Assembly (NCBI GenBank): GCA_964441955.1
Contig: CAYTWA010000007.1
Location: forward strand, 71,555-135,554
From: an uncultured Elusimicrobia bacterium
GTDB lineage: Bacteria; Elusimicrobiota; Elusimicrobia; 2-01-FULL-59-12
DNA length: 64,000 nucleotides
Direction: 5' to 3'
The notes beneath the pieces are model-generated. The model made no database searches, was not told where the DNA came from, and was given only the letters and a program-made list of their open reading frames with translations. Positions 2,701 through 52,998 of this stretch are shown here, piece by piece (the first letter of the stretch is position 1; every line of letters starts with the position of its first letter). Made by a program: the position numbers and the translations under genes.

Positions 2701-4499
2701 TTCTTTTTCGCTCGACAGCGCCCCGTGTAGGGCGTGCCTCCTTGATTCGAGAGCTGCGGTGTCAATGGGAACGCCAATCTATTTTCTGCCTTAGCGTCAT
2801 TTTTGAAAAAGAAAACAGCAACGCTTTGGATTTGGCGGAATGGTTAGAGCGGTACCGCCCCTTGTCCCCACTCCTGCAGCGCAATGCACTCCAATCCGCT
2901 CAGTCGTATGGGTTTTTGAAGTTAAAAGAAACAACCCCAGCCGCCCTAAAGGAATGGCTGGGGCTTGCGACGTCTCTTTATCGCTGGGTTCTCGTGTCCG
3001 CCCCTTCCGAGAACTCAGAAAGTTTCGTGACGCTTCTCGATGCCGCAGACCTCCTGGTCACGGTCACCGTTTCGGGCGGACGGCCAGAAGACGATAGCCG
3101 CCTTTTACGGGATTGTCTCGAACGAGAGCGCTTCCCGTTGGCTTTCCATCAATGGGTTATCAATCGAGAGCCAAGAAGCTCAAAGCCATCGCCGATCCAT
3201 CCATTGAGCATTTTGCCGGAAGATCCCTTGCTAGGCATTCGCTGGCGAGAAGCGGTTCGCGGCCTGGCTGAAACCTTCAAACAAAAGCCCGCACTCTTTA
3301 AACCGCAAACGCCCCTTTCGCAAAAAGAGGAAACATCTCGGCAAGTGCTGGAGGATCTCAAAGCCCGAATACAGCCTCAGCTAGTTCAAGCCATGGAGCA
3401 ATCCCCCACTCAAGGAACCGAAAAAGTCCAAGCCGTATTGGCCGCGGCGTTAGTTGATGAAAGCCGTTTGCCGGTTGACCGCCAGCAGCGTGAAGAAGCG
3501 ATGCAACGTGTGCTTGAAGATGTGTTGGGGTTGGGGCCTATAGAGACGTTGCTTAAAGATCCCGAGGTTTCCGAAGTTATGGTTAACGGGCATGGGTGCG
3601 TCTACGTCGAAAAACGCGGAAAGCTGCACCATACGCCAATCCAGCTGGCGTCTGAAGCGCAGCTGCGCACATTGATCGATCGCATTGTGGCGCCGCTGGG
3701 CCGGAGGGTGGATGAATCCATGCCGCTTTGTGATGCGCGCTTAGCCGATGGCTCGCGAGTGAATATCGTATTGCCCCCGTTGGCGCTGGATGGCCCTACG
3801 CTTACCATCCGGAAATTTATGACAAAACGTTTGGCCTTTGATCAATTGGTCGAGTTAGGCTCAATGAGCGCCGCGATGGGAAGATTTTTAAGCGGGGCGG
3901 TGATGTCCCGTAAAAACATTTTGGTGTCGGGGGGGACGGGAAGCGGGAAAACCACGCTGCTCAATGCCCTCTCCTCTGCCATTCCTGACGATGAACGTAT
4001 TGTGACGATTGAAGATGCCGCGGAACTCAGACTTCAAAAACCCCATGTGGTGCGCTTGGAATCCCGTCCGCCTAATGCGGAGGGGCAAGGTGAAATTCCC
4101 ATCCGGCGGTTGGTGATCAATGCGCTCCGTATGCGGCCCGACCGCATTGTGATTGGCGAGTGCCGGGGTGGCGAAGCGCTCGACATGTTGCAGGCCATGA
4201 ACACGGGTCACGATGGGTCGCTGACCACGATTCATGCCAATACACCGCGGGATGCGCTCGGGCGTTTGGAGACCCTCGTGCTCATGGCGGGCATGGACTT
4301 GCCCGTGCGGGTGATCCGTGAACAAATTCGAAGTGCGATTCATCTTATTGTTCAGCAGGCACGTTTGCCTGATGGCTCCAGAAAGGTGACCTCTGTCACC
4401 GAAGTTACGGGGATGGAACAAGAGGTGCTGGTCACACAGGAATTGTTTCGTTTGCGAAACGGCCAGTTTGAAACGACGGGTCTGCGAGCGGCCTCATGA
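2682..4499 (+). CDS. cpaF: Tad pilus ATPase CpaF/TadA with ~200-aa N-terminal extension resembling a degenerate TadZ/CpaE (ParA-like C-terminal half)
   Basis: Walker A '[16 protein letters not shown]' and a T2SSE/VirB11-like core (..[33 protein letters not shown]..). The N-terminal region contains '..[29 protein letters not shown]..'. Confidence 0.85.
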
Positions 4500-26569: not shown

Positions 26570-28204
26570 TCAGTAGCCGCTGTAAAGAATAAGCGAACAA
26601 ATGATGAACACTAAAATGGCAAACGTCCAATGAATACCGCGGGTCATGGCATCGCGTTTAAGGGTTTCCACCTGAAGGTCGCGAAGTTCCAGGTAGGGGG
26701 TTTTCTTCCCGCGGAGCCACCCGTGAACGACGGCGTCTTTGTCGTTGAGCTTTGCCAGGTTTGAGACGCCGAAAAGCCCCGCGGCCAAATTCCACCCGGA
26801 GTGGCGATCCAACGGGAGAGCTTTTTCATCAACCCGTAAATGCCACACCATCGAGGCTTTTTCTTTAGCGCCGACGAGTCGCCCTTTAAACTCCTGCAGC
26901 GATCTTTTGGAATAGAGCACCTCGATTTTAGGCATACGCGCTAAGGACCAAGTCCAAACCATCCAAGTGGCGGCATAAAACCATTCGAATTCGTAGGCGG
27001 TCAGCCAATGAAGGAGGAGTGCCCCAACGGGCAGCACGGTAGGTAAAACAAGCAGGGCTCGCTGCTTAAACGGTCGTTTGGGAAGCGATTCCACCATTTG
27101 AGGCAACGCGGGTTTGGGAGGCTCCTGAGGTTTTGGCGTGGGTGTGACTATGGGGGGCGGCACCGGTTTTGGCGCTGGCACTGGTTTTGGTGTTTCGACA
27201 GGCTTAGGAAGTTCCGCGGGGTTAGGTGTTTTTTTCTTGTCGTCATCCCCGCGGATGGGTAGCGGGGATTCAGTGTCTTTAGGCGACGTCTTCGCCGTCG
27301 GTTGGGCGGTTTTTTTAGGTCCGGAAAACAATTGGCTGAAAAAGCCTGGCTTCTTTTGAGCCGTGGAAACAAAAGGTTTGGCTTTGGGTGGCTCAACGGG
27401 CTTTACCGGTGTGGGTGGTGGAGCAGGAATCTCCACGGGTTTTTCAGTTTCAAGCGGTTTAGCGGGCTCGGCTGGAGGAGCGGTTTCTGGTTTGGCTAAT
27501 TCCGCGGGCTTTACAGGTACGGGTGTCGGGTCTGGGATCGGTGTCGATATCGGGAGCGGCGTTGGTTCAGGTGCAGACATCGGCAAAGGCTCCACACTTT
27601 TAACCACCGGCTCTTCTTTTATCTTCGGCTCAATTTTCTTGGGCGTGTCTGAGGGTTTCTTTTCTTCTTTACTGACTCGCTTAACCGCTTTCTCGCTTTC
27701 TTTGGCCGGGGGCATGTTCGCGCCCAAACGGTCCGCGGTTTTTTCGAGCGACTTGGCCATGGACTTCAAAGCTTTGGCCAAGGGATTGGGTTTTATGGGT
27801 TCTACTTCTAAGGTTTCCATGCGCGGTTTGGCCTCATGCGCCGCCAATTCCACTTGTTCGCGAAGGGAACGTTCCAGCGCGCGGTCAAAAACGGCCAAGG
27901 TGCGAAAATCAATCCAAACCCCGCGGTCTGAGGGGCAAAACGTGAAAATGAGCCCGGCCGTTTTCGAGCGGCCTTGCTGCAGCTTGCCGTTGCATTTCGG
28001 GCACGAACGGGCCGTGGCCAACTTGTAGTCGTATGCTTCCTCGAAAGCGGTTTTAAAACGGGCATGGTCATCACTAAAGCCGTCCAGCGTGCTTTGGTCG
28101 GACCAAAGGAAGGCGCAAGACGGGCACTGGTACACCGTGCCATGCGTGGTTTTGCGCGCCTGCAACTCCATCCCATCACAAGTCGGGCATTTCATTGGGG
28201 ACAA
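26570..28204 (-). CDS. Membrane protein with two N-terminal zinc ribbons and a long Pro/Lys/Glu-rich low-complexity linker
   Basis: 'CPTCDG..CPSC' and 'CPKCNG..C' ribbons. About 200 aa of PxxP/PKP repeats, then TM segments and a C-terminal domain. Confidence 0.6.
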   Translation of the reverse strand: MSPMKCPTCDGMELQARKTTHGTVYQCPSCAFLWSDQSTLDGFSDDHARFKTAFEEAYDYKLATARSCPKCNGKLQQGRSKTAGLIFTFCPSDRGVWIDFRTLAVFDRALERSLREQVELAAHEAKPRMETLEVEPIKPNPLAKALKSMAKSLEKTADRLGANMPPAKESEKAVKRVSKEEKKPSDTPKKIEPKIKEEPVVKSVEPLPMSAPEPTPLPISTPIPDPTPVPVKPAELAKPETAPPAEPAKPLETEKPVEIPAPPPTPVKPVEPPKAKPFVSTAQKKPGFFSQLFSGPKKTAQPTAKTSPKDTESPLPIRGDDDKKKTPNPAELPKPVETPKPVPAPKPVPPPIVTPTPKPQEPPKPALPQMVESLPKRPFKQRALLVLPTVLPVGALLLHWLTAYEFEWFYAATWMVWTWSLARMPKIEVLYSKRSLQEFKGRLVGAKEKASMVWHLRVDEKALPLDRHSGWNLAAGLFGVSNLAKLNDKDAVVHGWLRGKKTPYLELRDLQVETLKRDAMTRGIHWTFAILVFIICSLILYSGY

Positions 28205-28209
28205 GGATA

Positions 28210-28608
28210 TCAGGTCCAGTCGGCCATTTTAAGGTGGGGAATGCGTGAGAATTCCCTGGTGTTGTGTGTGATGAGGGTTGAATTCAAGCTTAAGGCATGT
28301 GAAGCAATGAGGAGGTCGTAGGCGCCGATAGGCACACCGCGACGTTCCAGGTCCACGCGCAGGCGCCCGAAATGATCGGCGCAAGAGGTGTCCAGAGGAA
28401 GAACCGGAATGGCGGCCGTCAGTTCGTGAATGGTGCTTAAGTTTGTTGCCACGCGTTGGCTTTTTCGGGCGCCGTAAATTAACTCCAGATAAGTGACGAC
28501 CGACATCCCCGTTTCTCCGGCAGGCAGTTTTTCAAATCGAGCCAGGAGAGCGGGTGAACTTTTTTTGGCGATGTAAATGCAGATATTGGTGTCGAGAAGG
28601 TAGCGCAT
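28210..28608 (-). CDS. vapC: VapC PIN-domain toxin
   Basis: 'MRYLLDTNICIY' plus conserved acidic residues of the PIN fold. Confidence 0.85.
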   Translation of the reverse strand: MRYLLDTNICIYIAKKSSPALLARFEKLPAGETGMSVVTYLELIYGARKSQRVATNLSTIHELTAAIPVLPLDTSCADHFGRLRVDLERRGVPIGAYDLLIASHALSLNSTLITHNTREFSRIPHLKMADWT

Positions 28609-28838
28609 TACAAGCGGGCACGTTTTTGAGGCTTGGGTTGCTGGCGCCCCTCTGCGAAGAAGTCACTCGAAAGGCGAGTTAAAAGCGCATAGGCATGAGC
28701 AAGCGAGTGGGGTTTTTCGCGGATCACCAGATCAGCCCCCTTCCTGAAAATTTCCACTCGTTTACAGGTCAAGTGAAACTTTCGAGGAATGCGAACCGCT
28801 TGAGAGTTTCCACTTCGAAACACTTTGGTTGTCGCCAT
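28608..28838 (-). CDS. vapB: VapB antitoxin (AbrB/SpoVT-like)
   Basis: 'VFRSGNSQAVRIPRKF' swapped-hairpin motif immediately upstream of vapC. The track ORF has an 11-aa extension. Confidence 0.7.
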   Translation of the reverse strand: MATTKVFRSGNSQAVRIPRKFHLTCKRVEIFRKGADLVIREKPHSLAHAYALLTRLSSDFFAEGRQQPKPQKRARL

Positions 28839-28877
28839 GCGTGAAGTATACACGCCATGTATATACGTCACAAGGGC

Positions 28878-29549
28878 TTATTTTAGATTGGAGATGTGGT
28901 ACGTGGCCGAAGGGTCGAAAGGGCCGCCGTCGCGTTTGAGGCGGCCTTGGGTTTGAAGCTGGGTTAGCAGGCGTGCCATGCTGCGGCGGGGGATGGCCAG
29001 CGCCTCGGACAAGGCTTTGGGGGTTTGCGGGCCGTTGGCGCGGACGTATGAAACGATTTGCTCTTCTTCCGAAGCGTCAGAAGGGGGTAAGCCCGCGGCG
29101 CTGGGGGAGCCACCCGTCACCGCCTGGCGTGCCCGCGGTGTCCGGCGAAACTGGCGAAGCGCATAGGCGCCGAAGAAGACGCTGATCACTTTAATGGTGG
29201 TTTCTTTAAGTTCCGGCGGCATCGGGCGAGTGGGGTCGGCAATCCGCCAAACCCCCGCTGCCAACAACAGCAACACCCAAACCGTGATGATCGGCCCGCC
29301 TTTTCTAATCTTCTCCGGCCAGCCCCCCGCGTCTTCGGGTTCCGTGTCTTTCATCCAGCGCTTGATCTCGGGGGCCCCCGCATACGCCACCAAGAAGACC
29401 ATATAAATATCGCTCCACGAATCCGGCGAGTAAAACGCCCCCCGGGTCCACAAATAGAGCGCATTCAAGGTTATGAGAAACGCCGTGCCCCCCAAGGCAA
29501 AAGGTCTCATAAACAAGCTGCCATCCTTCGTTTGCGGTAACTCTGCCAA
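28878..29549 (-). CDS. Membrane-anchored winged-helix (MarR/ArsR-like) protein, paralog 1
   Basis: 3-4 N-terminal TM helices and a C-terminal '..EEQIVSYVRANGPQTPKALSEALAIPRRSMARLLTQLQTQGRL' wHTH. About 45% identity to the ORF at 50052..50726. Confidence 0.55.
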   Translation of the reverse strand: MAELPQTKDGSLFMRPFALGGTAFLITLNALYLWTRGAFYSPDSWSDIYMVFLVAYAGAPEIKRWMKDTEPEDAGGWPEKIRKGGPIITVWVLLLLAAGVWRIADPTRPMPPELKETTIKVISVFFGAYALRQFRRTPRARQAVTGGSPSAAGLPPSDASEEEQIVSYVRANGPQTPKALSEALAIPRRSMARLLTQLQTQGRLKRDGGPFDPSATYHISNLK

Positions 29550-29570
29550 AGTAATGGAATTATAGTGATT

Positions 29571-29671
29571 TTGGCATGGTTCCTGGCAGGGTTCTGCTTG
29601 CGACAGTAATTTAGTGCCAAAATCTCATTTGGCAGGGTTATTAAGACTATTTGGCATGGTTTGGCAGGGTT
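29571..29671 (+). repeat. Array of five direct repeats TGGCA(T/G)GGTT (starts 29572, 29584, 29630, 29652, 29662), plus two inverted TGCCAAA half-sites at 29541 and 29614, in the divergent promoter region
   Basis: Read directly in the sequence. The last two copies are tandem at a 10-bp period. Confidence 0.6.
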
Positions 29672-29707
29672 GCGCCGTGGCGTCTTTTTGGATATTATGA
29701 AGCCACC

Positions 29708-30481
29708 ATGTCAGCCTTAGTCTTATCCAACATTTCTAAAATTTACCGCCGGTCTCACCTGGGCCGGACGAAAGAAACCGCGGCCATTCAGAGTTTGTCC
29801 CTCGAGGTGCGCGCGGGGGAAGTGTTTGGGCTGCTCGGCTTAAACGGGTCTGGGAAAACCACGACCATCAAAATGCTTTTGGGGCTTTTGCGGCCTACCC
29901 AGGGAACGATCCAGGTTCTTGGCCGCGCCATGCCCGACCGCCAGGTGCTCGCGCGTGTGGGGTATCTTCCCGAAGCGGCGTATTTATGCAAATGGATGAC
30001 TGGCCGCGAAGCGGTAACGCTTTTTGCCACGCTTTCTGGGATCCCGGCGTCTTCTCGAAAAAAGGCCGTTACCGATATTCTGGAACGTGTGGGAATGACC
30101 GTGGCGGCCGACCGCAAAATTGGCGAATATTCCAAAGGGATGCTGCAGCGTATCGGCATGGCACAAGCACTCGTCCATGACCCCGAACTGTTGATTTTTG
30201 ATGAACCCATCACCGGACTAGATCCTTTGGCGGTCAAGGATATGCGCCAGTTGGTGGCGTGGCTCAAAGCCAAAGGCAAAACCGTTTTCTTTTCCTCGCA
30301 CGATATGTCGGAAGTCGAAAAACTTTGTGACCGCGTCGGCATTTTAGCGGGCGGGCACCTGGCGCTCACCGCCGAACAAAAAGACTGGCGCGACCGCCCC
30401 GGACATTTAGAAGAGCTTTTTACCGCCACCGTTAAACGATCCGATGCGATCGGAATGCTTCAATTCAATGAAGGAGAATAA
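29708..30481 (+). CDS. ABC transporter ATP-binding protein (ABC-2 exporter type)
   Basis: Walker A 'GLNGSGKTT', signature 'YSKGMLQR' and Walker B 'LIFDEP'. Confidence 0.85.
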   Translation: MSALVLSNISKIYRRSHLGRTKETAAIQSLSLEVRAGEVFGLLGLNGSGKTTTIKMLLGLLRPTQGTIQVLGRAMPDRQVLARVGYLPEAAYLCKWMTGREAVTLFATLSGIPASSRKKAVTDILERVGMTVAADRKIGEYSKGMLQRIGMAQALVHDPELLIFDEPITGLDPLAVKDMRQLVAWLKAKGKTVFFSSHDMSEVEKLCDRVGILAGGHLALTAEQKDWRDRPGHLEELFTATVKRSDAIGMLQFNEGE

Positions 30482-40719: not shown

Positions 40720-42336
40720 ATGGCCTTAAAAAAGAAACTCCCTGTCCAAAAAGAAGCCCCGGCGCTAAAGCCCCTTAAAAAAGAAGCCGCGACCGAAGCC
40801 GACCGCCAAGCCGCTAAGCAGCGGGATATCTCTGTCTCCGAATTTTTTCTAAAAAATCGTCATCTGTTGGGGTTTGATAACGCCAAAAAAGCGCTGCTCA
40901 CGACAATTAAGGAAGCGGTGGATAACAGTTTGGATGCCTGCGAAGAAGCCAAAATCCTTCCGGAAATTTATGTCGAGGTCAAAGGACTGGACCAGGCGGA
41001 TCGTTTTGTCGTGATCGTGGAAGACAATGGCCCCGGCATTGTAAAGGAACAAATCCCCAGCATCTTTGCCAAACTGCTCTACGGGTCTAAATTTCATGCC
41101 ATGAAGCAGGCGCGCGGCCAACAGGGGATCGGCATTTCAGCGGCTGGCATGTATGGCCAACTGACTACAGGCGTGCCGACTCGCATCACCTCTCGCATCT
41201 CGGCCAAGAAGCCGGCGCATTATTTTGAACTCCAAATTGATACGGCTAAAAACAAGCCCACGATCGTCAAAGACGAAGTGATTCACTGGAAAAAACCGCA
41301 TGGCACGAAGGTGCAAATCGAACTAGAAGCAAAATACCAAAAGGGCCCGCGCTCGGTGGATGATTACATCCGCCAAACGGCGCTCGCCAACCCGCACGCG
41401 ACGATTCACTTTAAAAGCCCCGAAGGCGACAAGGCGGACTACAAGGCGGCGACTAAAAAGTTGCCTGTTGCGTCGAAAGAAATCAAGCCGCATCCGCATG
41501 GGGTGGAGCTTGGCATCTTAATGAAAATGCTCAAATCCACCAACGCCCGAAAAGTGGGAGCATTTTTATCGAAAGATTTTGCCCGAGTTTCGCCGCGTGT
41601 GGCGCATGCGATCTTAAAAGCGGCGGGGATTGAGGCGGATGCCAAACCAGCCGAGATCGCCCATCAAGAAGCCGACAAACTTCACCGCGCCATAAGCGCC
41701 ACGAAATTGATGAACCCCCCGACCAATTGCCTCTCTCCTATCGGTGAAGCGGCGATGCTTGCTGGGATTAAGGAAAACGTCGAAGCCGACTTTTACACCG
41801 CTTTGACGCGGCCGCCTTCGGTGTACCGCGGCAACCCGTTTCAAATTGAAGTGGCCCTTGCTTATGGCGGTAAGATGCCGCCCGAGGAACTGGCCCAGCT
41901 GCTGCGGTTTGCCAACCGCGTGCCGCTTCTCTATCAGCAAAGTGCGTGCGCCACCACCAAAAGCGTTTTGCAGATGGGTTGGAAAAACTATGGCGTCAAC
42001 CAATCGAAAGGGGCGCTGCCTACGGCCCCGCTTATGATAGCGGTTCACATGGCGAGCGTTTGGGTGCCCTTTACCTCGGAATCCAAGGAAGCGATCGCTT
42101 CCTACGAGGAAATCATTAAAGAAATCAAATTGGCGCTTCAAGAATGCGGACGCCGGCTGGATGCCTATTTGCGCCGCGGCGCGCGCGAAGCGGAGGCGAA
42201 GCGCAAACGCGACTACATTAAGTCCTACCTGCCGCACATCGGCATCGGCTTGCGTGAGATATTAGGCTTCAAGGAAAAAGAGCAGAAGAAGGTTTTGAAT
42301 TTGCTCATCGACATCCTGGAAAAGGAGCGCGCCTAA
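40720..42336 (+). CDS. top6B: DNA topoisomerase VI subunit B (GHKL/Bergerat ATPase)
   Basis: N-box 'EAVDNSLDA', G-boxes 'DNGPGI' and 'GQQGIGISAA', H2TH and transducer regions. Confidence 0.85.
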   Translation: MALKKKLPVQKEAPALKPLKKEAATEADRQAAKQRDISVSEFFLKNRHLLGFDNAKKALLTTIKEAVDNSLDACEEAKILPEIYVEVKGLDQADRFVVIVEDNGPGIVKEQIPSIFAKLLYGSKFHAMKQARGQQGIGISAAGMYGQLTTGVPTRITSRISAKKPAHYFELQIDTAKNKPTIVKDEVIHWKKPHGTKVQIELEAKYQKGPRSVDDYIRQTALANPHATIHFKSPEGDKADYKAATKKLPVASKEIKPHPHGVELGILMKMLKSTNARKVGAFLSKDFARVSPRVAHAILKAAGIEADAKPAEIAHQEADKLHRAISATKLMNPPTNCLSPIGEAAMLAGIKENVEADFYTALTRPPSVYRGNPFQIEVALAYGGKMPPEELAQLLRFANRVPLLYQQSACATTKSVLQMGWKNYGVNQSKGALPTAPLMIAVHMASVWVPFTSESKEAIASYEEIIKEIKLALQECGRRLDAYLRRGAREAEAKRKRDYIKSYLPHIGIGLREILGFKEKEQKKVLNLLIDILEKERA

Positions 42337-43427
42337 TGGACCGATCCACCGAAAAGTTAATTCACCAGGACGCCGAAAAGCTGTACCAGGAAATTTTGAA
42401 GAAAAAAATACCGATGCTGGACTTCCCCATGCGCAGCCTTGAGAACGTCACCTACGACAAGAAGAAGGGCTATTTTGAAATCGGGGATCGCGTGGTGGAA
42501 CGCACGCTGTCCTACAACACGATTAAAACCTTCGCGCAAACGGTTCGCATGATGGCGCTCTCGCATGAGATCGTCAAAAAAGACGATATGGCCACCAAAC
42601 GGGAGGCGTATTACGTCTCTAAAAATTGGGGCGAAGCGCGTTTTACCGAACAGCCGGAGTCCGACACGATCATGGACGACATCGAAGCTCATTTTCGTTT
42701 GAACCGGGAGAAGCTGGGTTTTATTCCGGAGGAAAAAGGCGGCGACATCGTGGGGAAACTCACCGTCATCGACAAAGACCCCAACACCGGCAAAGAGATC
42801 CGCATCGACTGTACGGGTTTTGGCTCCGGCGCTTATTCCATTCCAACCGATTGCGAGGGGCTTAAGTTTGAAACCAAAGCCAAATACATTTTGGCCATCG
42901 AAACGGCCGGCATGTTTCAGCGGCTTGTGAAGCATAACTTCTACACCACGGATAACTGCATTTTAATTTCCATGGGCGGAGTGCCGACGCGTGCATGCCG
43001 CCGGTTTATTCGCCGCTTAGCCGATGAACACAAGCTTCCGGTGTACGCCTTCGTGGACGGCGATCCGTACGGCATGACGAACATTTACCGAACGCTGAAG
43101 GTGGGGTCGGGCAATAACGCGCATTTAAACACCTTCTTTTGCGTTCCACAGGCGAGTTACCTAGGCGTAACCCCACAGGACATCATCGACTTTAAACTAA
43201 AAGACGCCACACACCCTCTCGCCGAAGTCGACATCAAGCGCGCCAAAGACGCCTTAAAAAGCGATCCCTTCATCAAGGCGCACAAACCGTGGCGAGACGC
43301 CATCGAACAGATGCTCGAAATGGGTGTGCGCGTCGAACAGCAGGCCTTCGCCAAACACGGCCTTAACCACGTGATCGAAAAATATCTGCCCATCAAACTG
43401 AAAAAGCCCTCCAAATTTTTGCCCTGA
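42336..43427 (+). CDS. top6A: DNA topoisomerase VI subunit A (Spo11-like; WHD + Toprim)
   Basis: 'KREAYYVSKNW' carries the catalytic Tyr. Toprim 'LAIETAGMF..FVDGDPYG'. Start overlaps the top6B stop. Confidence 0.85.
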   Translation: MDRSTEKLIHQDAEKLYQEILKKKIPMLDFPMRSLENVTYDKKKGYFEIGDRVVERTLSYNTIKTFAQTVRMMALSHEIVKKDDMATKREAYYVSKNWGEARFTEQPESDTIMDDIEAHFRLNREKLGFIPEEKGGDIVGKLTVIDKDPNTGKEIRIDCTGFGSGAYSIPTDCEGLKFETKAKYILAIETAGMFQRLVKHNFYTTDNCILISMGGVPTRACRRFIRRLADEHKLPVYAFVDGDPYGMTNIYRTLKVGSGNNAHLNTFFCVPQASYLGVTPQDIIDFKLKDATHPLAEVDIKRAKDALKSDPFIKAHKPWRDAIEQMLEMGVRVEQQAFAKHGLNHVIEKYLPIKLKKPSKFLP

Positions 43428-48940: not shown

Positions 48941-49519
48941 ATGATGGCGCGGCCGGCCCTGGTGGTGCTCCTGTCTTTTTCTAGAGCCGCCAGGGCCGCA
49001 GACGTTTATCTGACCTTAAATGCGCAGGGTCAGGGGACCTACGTGGTCGAGGCGCGCTTTTGGACCGCAAGCGACCTACCGGGGGTGTGGGGGGTGCTCA
49101 CCGATTATACCCGCCTTCCCACATTTATCCCCTCGCTAAAAGAAAGCGAGCTTCAGCACAAAACCACGGACTTTCTTGTCCTTAAACAAGAGGCCGTGGG
49201 GCGCGCTTTGGGGGTTTTTAACCGGCACCTGCACGTGCGGCTTCACATCACGGAAAAAGAGAACAGGGAAATTACCTTCAAGGACACGGCGCGCCGAGAT
49301 TTTGTCTCATATTATGGGTCTTGGCAGATAGACCCCGCCTTAGAGGGGGGCACCTGGGTGACCTATCACCTCATCGCGCAGCCCGCCTTTTATGCGCCGT
49401 CTTTTATCGCCCGAAAATCCTTTCGAACCAATGCCAAAGAGCTTCTGATGTCCGTAGAAGCCGAAATCGCCCGCCGGGAACATCTCAAGAGTAAACTTCT
49501 ATGCTGTTCCAAAGATTAG
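48941..49519 (+). CDS. Secreted SRPBCC (START/polyketide-cyclase-like) lipid-binding protein; alternative GTG start at 48926
   Basis: Signal peptide and SRPBCC-like length and pattern. Confidence 0.4.
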   Translation: MMARPALVVLLSFSRAARAADVYLTLNAQGQGTYVVEARFWTASDLPGVWGVLTDYTRLPTFIPSLKESELQHKTTDFLVLKQEAVGRALGVFNRHLHVRLHITEKENREITFKDTARRDFVSYYGSWQIDPALEGGTWVTYHLIAQPAFYAPSFIARKSFRTNAKELLMSVEAEIARREHLKSKLLCCSKD

Positions 49520-50055
49520 CTGCCGCGGTCTTTTTGATGGTATTTCTGCCGCTCTTTGGCTGGGCCGCTCAAAACGCGGAAAGGGCGCGACAGTTTATCG
49601 TCATGGGTTATCAAGGCTTGGTCCAAGAAGTCGCTGAAAACCGGCGAGGGGCGTATCTCAACACGCTAATCGATTTGTTGAAGATTCCATCCGATCAACA
49701 ACCCCAGGCCATCGAGAAAATTGAAGTAGCCGCCAAAGCCTATCCGAACATCATGGATTTTGCGGATCATGTGCTGGCGCAGGAGCCTCTGCTTGGAGTC
49801 TTGAACTCCACGGCAGCTGTTTCAGCAGCCATCCCCGCTCTCCCGGCTAGTGCCACCTTTTATACGGGACCCGGTCTCGAAAACGCCCTTAAGCATTTGG
49901 CTAAAGGAATGAGCGTCACGGTGTATACGAAGTCCGATGAAACTGTAAAAGGAAAAGTGGCTGACTACGATTCCCGCCGTTTATGGCTTAGAACACCGGC
50001 CATGAAATCCTTCAGGCTTCAAGACATCCAAGCCCTTGAGGCTCCGGACCTTTAA
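49501..50055 (+). CDS. Hypothetical secreted protein
   Basis: Signal peptide 'AAVFLMVFLPLFGWAAQ'. Overlaps the upstream gene. Confidence 0.35.
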   Translation: MLFQRLAAAVFLMVFLPLFGWAAQNAERARQFIVMGYQGLVQEVAENRRGAYLNTLIDLLKIPSDQQPQAIEKIEVAAKAYPNIMDFADHVLAQEPLLGVLNSTAAVSAAIPALPASATFYTGPGLENALKHLAKGMSVTVYTKSDETVKGKVADYDSRRLWLRTPAMKSFRLQDIQALEAPDL

Positions 50056-50726
50056 GGGTGTGGCGACGCGGCATAGGTTGGGTTTGGGTCGCGCGGGGAT
50101 GTGGCCTTTCGCGTGATGCGGTTCTGGTTTAATAATTCAGTTAGTGAGCGGGCCAGCGTACTGCGGGTGAGGTTTAAATCCACGCGCAAGGTTTTAGGGG
50201 TGGAAGGGCCGCGTGTGGTGAGATAGTCCATCACCTGCGCGTTGGTGTCTGCGACCTCTTCACTTGGGTTTAAATCCTCTTGCACTTGGCCGCGGCGCAC
50301 AGAGCGGCGGCGGATTTGGCGCAGAGCGTAGGTCCCAAAGAAAAGCCCCATCACCTGAAGTAAAATCGTCTTTAGCTCGGGCGGCATGGGCACGGTGGAG
50401 TCATGAATGCGCCACAGCACCGCCGCCGCCCAGAGCAAAAACCACAGCGTCACCAGGGGCCCGCCTTTTCGAATTCGTTCGTTCCACCCCTGGGGGTCTT
50501 GGTCTTGCCCTTGAGACCAGCGCTTAATTTCCGGTCCACCCGCGTAGGTCGCCAGAACAAAAAAATACACATCCGCCACCGCATCGGGAGAGTGAAAAGC
50601 CCCGCGAGTCACCATATAAAGCCCTATATACCCCGCCAAATAAGCCGTCATCCCAATTGCAAACGGCCGCATATAGAGGCTGCCATCGGAGGAGGGCTGA
50701 AGGGGGGTGTTTTCCAACTGACTCAT
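50052..50726 (-). CDS. Membrane-anchored winged-helix protein, paralog 2
   Basis: Same architecture as 28878..29549 and ~45% identity to it ('SDGSLYMRPFA..RGAF.SPD..YAG.PEIKRW..RIRKGGP..PMPPELK..'). Confidence 0.55.
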   Translation of the reverse strand: MSQLENTPLQPSSDGSLYMRPFAIGMTAYLAGYIGLYMVTRGAFHSPDAVADVYFFVLATYAGGPEIKRWSQGQDQDPQGWNERIRKGGPLVTLWFLLWAAAVLWRIHDSTVPMPPELKTILLQVMGLFFGTYALRQIRRRSVRRGQVQEDLNPSEEVADTNAQVMDYLTTRGPSTPKTLRVDLNLTRSTLARSLTELLNQNRITRKATSPRDPNPTYAASPHP

Positions 50727-50747
50727 GTGCCCAAGTATAGGTAATAA

Positions 50748-50837
50748 ATGAGGCAGTCATGAGGCAGTTAGTTCCTAAGAGGGAAAACGCCGGTTTTCTG
50801 AAAATATGAGGCAGTTATGAGGCAGTTGTGAGGCAGT
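50748..50837 (+). repeat. Five direct repeats (A/G)TGAGGCAGT at 11-bp period (50748, 50759, 50806, 50817, 50828) upstream of paralog 2
   Basis: Read directly in the sequence. Confidence 0.65.
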
Positions 50838-50969
50838 AATAATCTGCTTTGGTTATGAAAACTGACACACCCCCCTAAAAACACTCAAAGGCCCACCGTA
50901 TCATTGACATTCGACCGGTAAGCCCATAGACTTCTAATCGATGCCAAACCCGCAGCGGCGAAAGCGTTC

Positions 50970-51713
50970 ATGATGTCTTTTGGCTCTATTGAAGGGTCTG
51001 TGGCTTTGCTCATTGGGGGGCCTGCTCTCTTGGGCTGGGGGCTGCGCACCTTTCAAAAAATGCGTTTTCTTCAAAACGTGCCTCGTTCAAAAGTACGCTC
51101 GGCCGCGATGGGAATTGTGGAATTACACGGCCAAGCGCGTATCGCCCAACCCCTGGTGTCCCCTGTGTCTAATCGGCCGTGCTGTTGGTGGCGCTGCCAA
51201 GAACAGGAATACCAAGTGCATGGCAAGCAATCCCGGTGGGTGACGCTCTCCGATACAAACAGCTTGAATTCTTTTTTTCTTGAAGATGAAACGGGACGCG
51301 TTCGAATAGACCCGGCCGATGCCGAGTTGCACATACCCAGCACGACGACCCCTTCCGGTTTCAATCGCCGTCATATCGAACAAATCATTTTTGAGTATTC
51401 CCCGTTATACGTCATAGGGTTTAGACGCTCGGCCCCTGGGCAGGGGGAAGACCGGATCGTCATTGGTTCGGCGCCGGGCAGCTTATATATTTTATCGACG
51501 TACGATGAAAAAAACCTTATCCTGCGTTGGAAGTGGGCCGTGCCCTCCGCCATTGGGGGAGGAATGGGCTTAACAGTTTTTGGCCTTTATCTTTCCCAGA
51601 AGGCCGATTTCCCCATTTGGCTTGCGGCCGGTGCGCTGGCTGTCGGCGCGATCGTCGCGCTAATTACAGATGCGAAAGGAGCCTTTCAATGGCGCTTATC
51701 CCGTTGGTCGTAA
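50970..51713 (+). CDS. Hypothetical membrane protein (N- and C-terminal TM), upstream partner of LemA
   Basis: ORF with TM segments at both ends. Overlaps the lemA start. Confidence 0.35.
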   Translation: MMSFGSIEGSVALLIGGPALLGWGLRTFQKMRFLQNVPRSKVRSAAMGIVELHGQARIAQPLVSPVSNRPCCWWRCQEQEYQVHGKQSRWVTLSDTNSLNSFFLEDETGRVRIDPADAELHIPSTTTPSGFNRRHIEQIIFEYSPLYVIGFRRSAPGQGEDRIVIGSAPGSLYILSTYDEKNLILRWKWAVPSAIGGGMGLTVFGLYLSQKADFPIWLAAGALAVGAIVALITDAKGAFQWRLSRWS

Positions 51714-52246
51714 TGGTGCTGGTCGTGTTGGTGGTTGGGGTTTATATCACCAGTCTTTATAACGGTTTGGTGATGCTTAAAAACAACATCGAAAAAGCCT
51801 GGTCCAATATCGACGTGCTTTTAAAACAACGCCATGATGAATTGCCCAAGCTCGTCGAAGTCTGCAAAGGGTATATGGCGCATGAAAGCGGCGCGTTGGA
51901 GAAAGTGATGAACGCTCGGCAAGGTCTTATAAGCGCCCAAGGCCCCACGGCCAAAGGCGAGGCGGAAGGTCAGCTGCAGGGCGCGCTGCGGCAGCTTTTT
52001 GCTTTGGCGGAGAGTTATCCCGATTTGAAGGCGCAGGCGTCGTTCGCGCAGCTCCAAACGCGGATTTCATCTTTGGAATCGGAAATCGCCGACCGAAGGG
52101 AGTTCTATAACGAGTCGGTGAACACCTACAATATCCGCATCGAATCGATCCCTGACACCTTTTTAGCCAAATTCCTCACCTACACTAAGAAAGAAATGTT
52201 TAAGGTCGACGTTCACGAGCGAAACGACGTGAAGATCCGCTTTTAA
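51689..52246 (+). CDS. lemA: LemA-family protein
   Basis: N-terminal TM and LemA-like sequence 'YNGLVMLKNNIEKAWSNIDVLLKQRHDELP..ESYPDLKA'. Confidence 0.75.
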   Translation: MALIPLVVMVLVVLVVGVYITSLYNGLVMLKNNIEKAWSNIDVLLKQRHDELPKLVEVCKGYMAHESGALEKVMNARQGLISAQGPTAKGEAEGQLQGALRQLFALAESYPDLKAQASFAQLQTRISSLESEIADRREFYNESVNTYNIRIESIPDTFLAKFLTYTKKEMFKVDVHERNDVKIRF

Positions 52247-52306: not shown

Positions 52307-52543
52307 ATGCCTAACATCTTGATTCGCAACGTTCCTCAAAAAACCATTCGATATGCCAAGCGGTTGGCGCGCCAACACCGAACCTCTCTTCAGGAAGAAA
52401 TTAGAACTTTAGTGGTTCAGGCATTGGATACTCGGATGGGGTCGTGGTCTGCCGCGGCCGATCGTATTCGGCGCCGATTTGAAAAAGAAGGAAAGCATTT
52501 TTCAAATTCAGTTGATCTGATTCGTGAAGACAGGATGCGGTAA
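52307..52543 (+). CDS. Ribbon-helix-helix antitoxin (FitA/StbC-like)
   Basis: 'MPNILIRNVPQKTIRYAKRLARQHRTSLQEEIRTLV' RHH-like. Immediately upstream of a PIN gene. Confidence 0.55.
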   Translation: MPNILIRNVPQKTIRYAKRLARQHRTSLQEEIRTLVVQALDTRMGSWSAAADRIRRRFEKEGKHFSNSVDLIREDRMR

Positions 52544-52551
52544 GGCAGCAC

Positions 52552-52998
52552 GTGCAATTGGTTTTGGACGCTTCTGTGGCGATTAAGTGGTATCTGCCAG
52601 AAGAGAACACAAAAGACGCTATCGAATTGAAAGAATGGGTCCAGCGGGGGTCGCACACATTTGTCGCGCCTTCTCTGTTTTATTCTGAATTGACTAATAT
52701 CTTGTGGAAACGTGTTGTTTTGAGACATGAAATGGATCGTCAGCGAGGGCGAGAAATTATTCATAAGGTGCTTCAAATGCCGCTTCAGGTGGTCCCTTCT
52801 CAGGACCTCATCTCTGATGCGTTTGAGATCGCCGCTCAGCACGGATGTTCCGCTTATGACGCACTTTATTTAGCCGTTTTGGCGCCGCAAGAATCCCGCT
52901 ATGTGACGGCCGATGTGGCTTTGATTCGACGAATGTCGAAAACGGGTTTGGCTTCACGCATCGTCTCGTTGGTCGAGTGGAAAAAGAGGTTATCTTAA
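52552..52998 (+). CDS. PIN-domain toxin (VapC-like), GTG start
   Basis: 'LVLDASVAIKWY' plus conserved acidic residues. Confidence 0.75.
   Translation: MQLVLDASVAIKWYLPEENTKDAIELKEWVQRGSHTFVAPSLFYSELTNILWKRVVLRHEMDRQRGREIIHKVLQMPLQVVPSQDLISDAFEIAAQHGCSAYDALYLAVLAPQESRYVTADVALIRRMSKTGLASRIVSLVEWKKRLS

Follow-up and report, generated by a model that had tools for sequence, protein, structure and literature searches.

A family of predicted membrane-tethered winged-helix proteins with gene-specific direct repeats at its own putative promoters in an Elusimicrobia bacterium

Introduction

Membrane-bound one-component regulators are few, and almost all of the well-studied ones follow the plan of ToxR, which the protein family described here reverses. 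Two members of this family are encoded in a 64,000-nucleotide (nt) stretch of DNA from an uncultured Elusimicrobia bacterium (assembly GCA_964441955.1, contig CAYTWA010000007.1), referred to below as the window. One is a 224-residue protein, the focal protein, and the other is paralog 1; an array of short direct repeats lies upstream of each gene. Among described systems, BcrR, the bacitracin sensor of Enterococcus faecalis, is a multi-span one-component regulator with almost no extracellular domain, so that sensing probably takes place in or at the membrane. Sulfolobus ArnR and ArnR1 (PMC6396743) are further multi-span one-component regulators of this kind, and membrane-bound ToxR binds direct repeats of the form TNAAA-N5-TNAAT at -51 to -37 of ompU (PMC7496328).

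As in ToxR, TcpP and CadC, the winged helix of the focal protein would be permanently attached to the membrane, with no phosphorelay. The likeness to ToxR extends to the DNA, since the sites that we propose for the family are likewise short repeats in direct orientation, roughly a helical turn from each other and at or near -35 (-42 and -31 at the focal gene, spaced by 11 bp, and likewise in 12 loci). Unlike ToxR, TcpP and CadC, however, the focal family has the membrane part first and the DNA-binding domain last. Where the ToxR type has one helix and a periplasmic sensor, the focal protein has four predicted helices and predicted outer loops of 7-8 residues. Its winged helix is minimal and resembles MarR, ArsR and Zalpha domains and not the OmpR/PhoB type, and the sequences are unrelated; the Trans_reg_C model matched neither paralog and is not among the 25 families listed for 72 relatives. 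A further difference from the ToxR type is that the detectable sites of the focal family lie only at its own promoters.

BcrR and ArnR have an N-terminal helix-turn-helix (HTH), XRE-type in BcrR, followed by C-terminal membrane helices, whereas the focal winged helix is C-terminal. BcrR uses inverted repeats, in contrast to the direct repeats found here, and we detected no homology to BcrR or ArnR and no HTH_3 or XRE match. There is one functional parallel to consider: BcrR controls an adjacent ABC transporter, and paralog 1 might do likewise.

Results

Repeats upstream of the focal gene

A sequence-only reading of the window had described five motif copies with 11-bp spacing, in groups of two and three, upstream of the second paralog. 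All five are present: the exact word TGAGGCAGT occurs on the plus strand at positions 50749, 50760, 50807, 50818 and 50829, with start-to-start steps of 11, 47, 11 and 11 bp, giving groups of two and three with an 11-bp period. The five exact copies fall within 89 bp, inside a 243-bp gap between the focal open reading frame (ORF; 50052-50726, minus strand) and a divergent ORF starting at 50970. The word occurs nowhere else in the window on either strand, and an exact 9-mer is expected by chance about 0.5 times in 128 kb of two-strand sequence (128000/4^9). The array is therefore confirmed and lies far beyond chance.

A sixth copy, which that reading had not noted, is inverted, has one mismatch and overlaps the focal start codon (Table 1). 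Numbered from the first base of the start codon, the proximal pair extends from -42 to -23, the inverted copy from +2 to +10 and the distal cluster from -111 to -81. The centre of the nearer member of the pair (-27) is 33 bp, or three 11-bp turns, from the centre of the start-site copy (+6), and these two would therefore bracket the -10 hexamer on one face of the helix. No Shine-Dalgarno sequence precedes the focal ATG, and no Rfam model matched the intergenic region at E<=1. The spacer between the proximal and distal blocks holds a 16-bp palindrome, GAAAACGCCGGTTTTC, at 50782-50797 on the plus strand, which is not conserved in L004, an ortholog locus; it might bind another dimeric factor or fold into a small hairpin.

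A common layout among close relatives

We compared 13 close-clade loci (at least 46% identity), namely the two window loci, L004-L008, L010, L011, L015 and L098-L100, anchoring them on the conserved MRP motif and numbering them as above. Twelve of the 13 have a common layout, although the 9-mer itself differs between loci. The proximal direct pair is present in all 12, starting at -42 to -45 and at -30 to -32; in L006 the copy nearer the promoter is degenerate. After the pair come 5-10 nt, a -10 hexamer (TATAAT, TATACT or TACTAT), another 5-12 nt and the start codon, which is preceded by no Shine-Dalgarno sequence. Further upstream, the distal cluster has 2-5 copies between about -124 and -74; its last direct copy is at -87 to -92 in 10 of the 12 loci (-80 in L004, -105 in L007), and in four loci one more copy, inverted, lies at -76 or -74. 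In 8 of the 12 the bases from +2 to +10 are covered by the motif of the locus itself in inverted form, with at most two mismatches. The -35 hexamer falls inside the proximal pair and is mostly poor, matching TTGACA at no more than four of six positions in 11 of the 12 loci and at one to three in six of them.

In all 12 loci the start codon beside the -10 hexamer shares its reading frame with MRP, every offset (39-63 nt) being divisible by 3. Because this in-frame codon lies 5-12 nt past the -10 without a Shine-Dalgarno sequence, the arrangement argues that translation would start there from an mRNA that is leaderless or nearly so. The public gene calls of several family members look wrong at the 5′ end (L015 4001-4075, L100 912-991, L010 4947-5000, L011 4968-5000). 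P0006 and P0007 are called too far upstream, translating through the operator repeats to give an N-terminal extension of the 'ELPHELRH' type, and P0009 and P0020 (from the alignment also P0011 and P0018) are called from the internal methionine of MRP.

Three distant relatives, L012-L014 (about 20-25% identity), have a Shine-Dalgarno sequence and lack this layout, so the operator grammar is specific to the close clade. In L014 (P0172, about 23-25% identical), five tandem NCARTTA 7-mers at about 1190-1225 lie 5′ of a -10 and a Shine-Dalgarno sequence; these may represent another kind of operator used in the family at large.

Paralog 1 has its own version of the array

The two paralogs had been described as lying about 21 kb apart with the same orientation and architecture, and this is what we find. 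A tblastn search of the window returned one paralog, aligned over 28890-29531 on the minus strand (48% identity, E 5e-59), in the same orientation as the focal gene and with its start codon 21,177 bp from the focal one. Upstream of it are five copies of TGGCA(G/T)GGT, at 29572, 29584, 29630, 29652 and 29662, and an inverted copy with one mismatch, TGGCAGAGT, overlaps the start codon at 29540-29548. A repeat finder independently reported a 13-nt arm at 29538-29550 that is 92% complementary to 29628-29640. The pairs here are spaced by 12 and 10 bp, not 11. The protein with its TTG start has no exact sequence in the protein collection.

The distal pair of paralog 1 abuts a weak candidate -35 element for the divergent ABC-2 genes (TTGCGC and TATTAT separated by 17 nt, with the ATG at 29708 another 9 nt on); the element did not come up in a consensus scan. 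Judging from this juxtaposition, paralog 1 might control the ABC-2 operon, as a local feature and not a family trait. In front of the ABC transporter ATPase gene (29693-29710, plus strand), the -10-like TATTAT lies only 9 nt before the ATG and there is no Shine-Dalgarno sequence, and leaderless starts may therefore be common in the source organism.

The repeat word follows the recognition helix

Five classes of word are found at the close-clade loci, read on the strand of the gene. ACTGC(C/G)TCA occurs at the focal gene, L004, L015 and L100, whose recognition helices begin with xRST; ACTGAGCCA (A or G at position 1, C or G at position 2) at L005, L006, L008 and L010, with PRR(T/S)V; AGTGACTCA at L007, with PRSSV; ACC(A/C)TGCCA at paralog 1 and L098, with PRR(S/T)xA; and ACTTGGCCA at L099, with PRRTLS. 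The winged helices of L015 and L100 are 54-59% identical to those of L005 and L006, against 38-48% to those of the focal protein and L004, and nevertheless they share both the RST residues and the ACTGC(C/G)TCA word with the latter two. Across these sequences, the 9-mer tracks the first residues of the recognition helix and not overall relatedness.

The copy at the start codon varies in the same way. When word classes were assigned to loci, the true assignment gave the lowest mismatch of 120 permutations (26, against a mean of 43). The copy forms part of the coding sequence, and the ORF begins ATGAGTCAG (M-S-Q) in the focal gene, ATGACGCAG (M-T-Q) in L004, ATGGCGCAG (M-A-Q) in L005, L006 and L010, TTGGCAGAG (M-A-E) in paralog 1 and ATGGCAGGG (M-A-G) in L098. 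Both the covariation of the word with the helix and that of the start-codon copy with the word are what one would predict were the sites read by the adjacent protein.

A scan of 155 kb of family loci for tandem pairs of any class (spacing 10-13, at most two mismatches in total) located them solely 5′ of the cognate gene, and neither window paralog has its site at the promoter of the other. The suggestion that the two paralogs have diverged, paralog-specific operators thus extends to the close clade, where the layout is the same in 12 of 13 loci and the 9-mer changes with the recognition helix. The GGCAG core that the two arrays had been said to share is present in three of the five paralog-1 copies; it is not an in-register conserved part of the word across the family.

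At L008, two near-palindromes, TATACCCGATTGGGTATA and TATACCCGAATGGGTATA, lie at about 3180-3290, 5′ of a divergent HipB-like gene and between the HipBA-like operon and P0013. They resemble HipB-type operators and are distinct from the locus's own AGTGAGCCA/ACTGAGCCA sites.

A conserved membrane part joined to a diverging winged helix

An AlphaFold2 (AF2) model of the focal protein, built from 23 sequences, has a mean predicted local distance difference test (pLDDT) score of 81.7. It places helices at residues 16-39, 48-72, 89-108 and 116-150, followed by a low-confidence linker and a C-terminal domain at residues 154-220 of three helices plus a hairpin (pLDDT 96-98). All four N-terminal helices have hydrophobic cores (Kyte-Doolittle hydropathy 1.47-2.15 over 15 residues), and lysine and arginine cluster in the loop after helix 2 (five residues) and after helix 4 (six residues). 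Because the hydrophobic cores and the Lys/Arg distribution fit it, we favor a four-span topology with both ends inside, which would place the winged helix in the cytoplasm.

The membrane part carries the conserved motifs YAGxPEIKRW, IRKGGP, PMPPELK and FFGTYALRQ. It is 70-90% identical among the nine closest loci, against 36-61% in the winged helix (except for two orthologous pairs), and for this reason we take it to be strongly constrained, as would fit a signal, partner or activity common to the family. A search of the PDB gave no fold match to the membrane part, and no Pfam family was found for it among the 25 families listed for 72 aligned relatives.

No Pfam or NCBIfam model reached its cut-off in either paralog. 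Residues ~160-211 gave weak, sub-threshold winged-helix matches to MarR_2, HVO_A0261_N and Sta1/Lrs14, and the closest solved folds to the C-terminal domain are winged helices of the MarR, ArsR and DeoR type and Zalpha domains. Unlike members of the MarR family, the two paralogs score 15.3 and 17.9 bits against MarR_2 (cut-off 27), only about 65 of their residues align to MarR structures, they lack the dimerisation helices, and their operators consist of direct repeats. Fusion of the winged helix to a membrane part is a further difference from the MarR, ArsR and DeoR repressors and from Zalpha proteins. A Zalpha identity was rejected on the HMMER alignment, where the Zalpha domain of PKZ reads KSTVNRHLY, the family consensus RRTLTRLLA and the focal protein RSTLARSLT. 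In Zalpha domains, a conserved Asn and Tyr of the recognition helix contact the Z-form backbone. Here the Asn is replaced by Thr or Ala and the Tyr by Ala or Thr. As the motifs also lack the alternation of purines and pyrimidines, Z-DNA binding was rejected as well. Membership of a known defence or phage family was likewise discarded, as PADLOC and PHROGs gave only weak winged-helix matches (CasR, Csa3, Ren-like).

Family size and spread

Among 5.8 billion (5.8e9) protein clusters, the focal protein has 22 relatives at E<=0.001, all of them at E<=2e-36 and labeled at best 'hypothetical protein' or 'uncharacterized membrane protein'. Searching 1.84 billion representatives exhaustively with a profile gave 368 hits at E<=0.001, 83 of them at E<=1e-10. 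About 70 of the 150 best profile hits are full length, with the membrane part followed by the winged helix; the rest of these 150 are fragments, stand-alone winged helices and multi-winged-helix proteins. The only genome-resolved relatives are three paralogs in one Elusimicrobiota metagenome-assembled genome (MAG), JBGPLV01, with 73, 63 and 61% identity. P0013 (L008) is a third paralog from the same two samples as the window protein.

Relatives were absent from 72,556 plasmids, 50,697 phages and IMG/VR (the wider alignment, A2, is too divergent for a viral scan), and on these grounds we rejected a plasmid, phage or viral origin. A protein-pattern scan of metagenome contigs gave no match, and GC content shows no convincing signal of horizontal transfer. 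With no informative name in public protein sources and no description found in literature searches, the proposal that this is an undescribed regulator family stands.

Genes around the family members

In the window, the GIDE-like and LemA genes divergent from the focal gene have a candidate sigma-70-type promoter of their own (Table 1). The divergent membrane loci had been put forward as regulated partners, and this part of the sequence-only reading finds no support as a family-wide trait. In the 73% ortholog, L004, and in L005, L006, L015, L098 and L100, the upstream neighbor is co-directional and unrelated, and the full array is kept. Neither the GIDE-like/LemA pair nor the ABC-2 genes is a conserved neighbor in the other family loci, although L010 has an ABC-2 set 3 kb away. 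Large ORFs account for four of the six co-directional neighbors; the large ORFs beside seven relatives (653-1315 residues) have no BLAST similarity to one another or to the window (E 1e-3) and no Pfam match above threshold. Genes 3′ of relatives include uroporphyrinogen decarboxylase, 4-alpha-glucanotransferase and Bax1-I. We found no conserved partner gene across the family loci that were read.

Paralog 1 is followed at once by a toxin-antitoxin pair, and the two are probably co-transcribed because the gap is only 6 nt. Other passengers downstream across short gaps are AbiEi/AbiEii in L004, Phd/PIN in L006 and Bax1-I in L007. The focal copy has none, because the next ORF, of 184 residues (49501-50055, plus strand), is convergent and shares 4 bp with it at the stops (50052-50055). 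The same overlap occurs in L002 and L003, and it leaves no room for a terminator between the two genes. Among 65 window ORFs scanned there are two PIN proteins, one beside each paralog.

Toxin-antitoxin genes adjoin nearly every family member, even the distant relatives at 20-25% identity, and are of several kinds: VapBC/FitA-PIN, AbiEi/AbiEii, BrnT, Phd-PIN, HipBA and a TacA-like antitoxin. They lie at L004 3909-5202, L005 4790-5131, L006 3960-4633, L008 1720-3174, L010 5594-6156, L099 180-865, L012 2364-3991, L013 5674-5916 and L014 4154-4699. The candidate in L014 is a nucleotidyltransferase of a kind that occurs in such pairs, and L012 directly follows AbiEii. This adjacency may reflect function or a shared insertion hot spot.

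Two other features of the window are recorded here. A 544-residue protein just 3′ of the block formed by paralog 1 and its toxin-antitoxin pair (26570-28204, minus strand) has an N-terminal TFIIB-type zinc ribbon, a long low-complexity middle rich in Pro, Lys and Glu, and a hydrophobic C-terminal region. At 40720-42336 and 42336-43427 on the plus strand lie neighboring genes for topoisomerase VI subunits B and A (Topo-VIb_trans, E 1e-60; TOP6A Toprim, E 2e-55) in what is apparently a bacterial genome.

Table 1. Positions of the focal gene, paralog 1, their repeat arrays and neighboring genes in the window.
Feature	Position	Strand	Remarks
Focal gene, 224 aa, membrane part then C-terminal winged helix	50052..50726	-	ORF, homologs, AF2 model
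Membrane part, aa 16-139, four hydrophobic helices, modelled N-in/C-in	50310..50681	-	AF2, hydropathy
Minimal C-terminal winged helix, aa 154-220	50067..50267	-	Recognition helix begins RSTLAR
Inverted motif copy TGAGTCAGT, 8/9 match	50717..50725	-	Spans bases 2-10 of focal ORF
-10 hexamer TATACT	50734..50739	-	7 nt 5′ of focal ATG
Proximal direct pair, two ACTGCCTCA copies on gene strand	50749..50768	-	-31 and -42 from start codon; over -35 region
Distal cluster, three ACTGCCTCA copies	50807..50837	-	-89, -100 and -111 from start codon
Sigma-70-type promoter TTGACA-17-TAGACT for GIDE-like/LemA genes	50904..50932	+	~67 bp beyond distal cluster
Divergent neighbors, GIDE-like membrane protein (50970-51713) and LemA (51689-52246)	50970..52246	+	Pfam; gene calls in L001
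FitA-like ribbon-helix-helix antitoxin and PIN toxin	52307..52998	+	1.6 kb from focal gene
Paralog 1, 223 aa, TTG start	28878..29549	-	47-48% identical; recognition helix begins RRSMAR
Paralog-1 operator (putative), gene-strand motif ACC(C/A)TGCCA	29540..29670	-	Layout as at focal gene
Paralog-1 proximal pair	29572-29580 and 29584-29592	-	
Paralog-1 distal copies	29630-29638, 29652-29660, 29662-29670	-	
Paralog-1 -10 TATAAT	29559-29564	-	
87-aa antitoxin-sized ORF then PIN toxin	28210..28871	-	6-nt gap 3′ of paralog 1

Discussion

On balance, we think it probable that the focal protein is a membrane-tethered one-component autoregulator that uses self-specific 9-bp words at its own promoter, most likely to repress it. 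The array would first of all be an autoregulatory operator that travels with the gene, with the divergent membrane operons incidental, because it is fixed to the gene's own -10 and start, the neighbors vary and the GIDE-like gene has a separate promoter.

We propose that the four N-terminal helices hold a flexible arginine-rich/acidic linker and the winged helix at the cytoplasmic face of the membrane, where the winged helix would recognize the word ACTGCCTCA. Several protomers could bind side by side, the 11-bp period putting successive words on the side of the DNA that faces the membrane. Occupation of the proximal pair and the start-site copy would then set the protein's own transcription; with sites on both sides of the -10 and over the start, we favor repression. 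The distal cluster may add cooperativity or looping, and the conserved membrane part may modulate occupancy in response to an intramembrane or envelope signal. Same-strand downstream genes across short gaps, such as the toxin-antitoxin pair of paralog 1, would ride on the same promoter. Each paralog would have its own word and ignore the promoters of the others, and the diverging DNA-binding end would keep co-resident copies orthogonal.

Several points weigh against this proposal. Winged helices of the MarR, ArsR and Zalpha kind usually bind palindromes as dimers, or Z-DNA, and not head-to-tail repeats, and DNA binding by the focal protein is itself something that we infer. Perhaps five or six genomes contribute the five motif classes behind the covariation, and orthologs among the loci do not count as independent cases. 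The layout is missing from L011, where the gene abuts the preceding ORF, and the start-codon copy is poor in L100, L007 and L015. The gap between the proximal and distal blocks is 44-49 bp in most loci and 60 bp in L007, which is no whole number of turns, so a flat membrane-side assembly on both blocks would need DNA bending. Leaderless initiation at TTG (paralog 1) or GTG (L015) would be unusual. With itself as the only detectable target in the 64 kb of genome scanned, the protein has no obvious output. Lastly, the weak -35 hexamers fit activation as well as repression.

The last point leads to the main alternative, activation like that of PhoB or ToxR/TcpP by the proximal pair at a weak -35, to which we give a real though clearly smaller chance. 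This would be class II positive autoregulation, with the pair replacing the missing -35, the bound protein recruiting RNA polymerase and the start-site copy capping the level. Besides the poor -35 hexamers of 11 of the 12 loci, a consensus scan called no complete sigma-70 promoter, -35 included, on the strand of the gene in either window locus, and the same organism uses a perfect TTGACA for the neighboring gene. The pair ends at what we take to be the pho-box position of PhoB, 5-10 nt upstream of the -10. ToxR, too, activates from direct repeats at -51 to -37 (PMC7496328). However, a conserved site across +2 to +10 is typical of repression, and the domain is not of the OmpR/PhoB type and has no Trans_reg_C match.

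A rather unlikely alternative, which we find worth keeping in mind, is a self-contained cassette akin to an addiction, segregation or defence module, in which the membrane part would be a dose-sensitive or toxic effector or a tether for the locus. The fused DNA-binding domain would curb its own expression, and interference between co-resident copies would be prevented by orthogonal specificities. A conserved membrane part beside a diverging winged helix is the pattern of immunity and incompatibility determinants, each copy's sites occur only at itself, and copies apparently share a genome (the two in the window plus P0013; the three in MAG JBGPLV01). Toxin-antitoxin genes lie by nearly every copy, both PIN modules of the window included, but the spot may simply be one that tolerates insertions. 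The direct repeats, in two blocks with an 11-bp period at the binding protein's own promoter, recall parC and ParR of plasmid R1, and a specificity for self in cis that diverges between copies resembles antitoxin autoregulation. Unlike the soluble ParR and most antitoxins, which have ribbon-helix-helix or other folds, the focal protein has a winged helix and a membrane part; unlike ParR/parC, its genes are chromosomal, with housekeeping genes nearby (methionyl-tRNA synthetase, HisB, thymidylate kinase). We found no ParM/ParA ATPase, replication initiator or conserved toxin partner beside the family loci read, and no partition ATPase or Rep protein among the 25 best-represented of 87 Pfam families. 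The plasmid, phage and IMG/VR collections hold no relatives, the PADLOC and PHROGs matches are at the winged-helix level only, and GC content is unremarkable.

We consider it improbable that the arrays are read by another protein, for example a response regulator of the OmpR/PhoB type with the membrane proteins as its targets. Direct repeats with an 11-bp period over the -35 are the classical layout of such regulators, and the preference of MarR/ArsR-type winged helices for palindromes is in keeping with this view. On the other hand, the motif follows the recognition helix of the adjacent protein independently of overall relatedness, so each of at least five classes would need an external regulator of its own, diverging in parallel, and the arrays travel with the gene into unrelated neighborhoods. 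Finally, dispersed elements of the repetitive extragenic palindromic (REP) kind or chance low-complexity sequence, unlinked to the gene, which the sequence-only reading had named as its refuting case, can be dismissed: a search of the window allowing one mismatch gave 15 hits against 9.6 expected (not significant alone) and the exact two-copy pattern ACTGCCTCANNACTGCCTCA occurs at 82 metagenome loci, but none of the 82 encodes a family member, so that these matches are background, while the exact copies are confined to one 89-bp cluster in the window, tandem pairs of all five classes are restricted to cognate promoters in 155 kb, and motif, orientation and spacing recur 5′ of the 73% ortholog in another genome.

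If the focal protein is indeed an autoregulator of the kind that we favor, its operators have a readable grammar of fixed positions and a variable word, with two or three recognition-helix residues tracking the word. Such a specificity code is directly testable and would provide naturally orthogonal protein-operator pairs. A further question is how a protein tethered to the membrane could assemble on the five or six sites that surround a leaderless promoter. The compact four-helix membrane module is matched by no Pfam or NCBIfam family or solved structure, and its conservation implies a shared envelope signal or activity. To our knowledge, gene regulation in Elusimicrobiota is essentially unstudied. 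A membrane part that is conserved, a DNA-binding end that diverges, sites confined to the gene itself and toxin-antitoxin neighbors together make a set of traits unlike that of ordinary sensors. Were the family to prove a cassette, it would be a single-gene, autoregulated element of a new kind, anchoring DNA to the membrane or resembling addiction or defence systems, and its members would form a natural library of orthogonal repressor-operator pairs.

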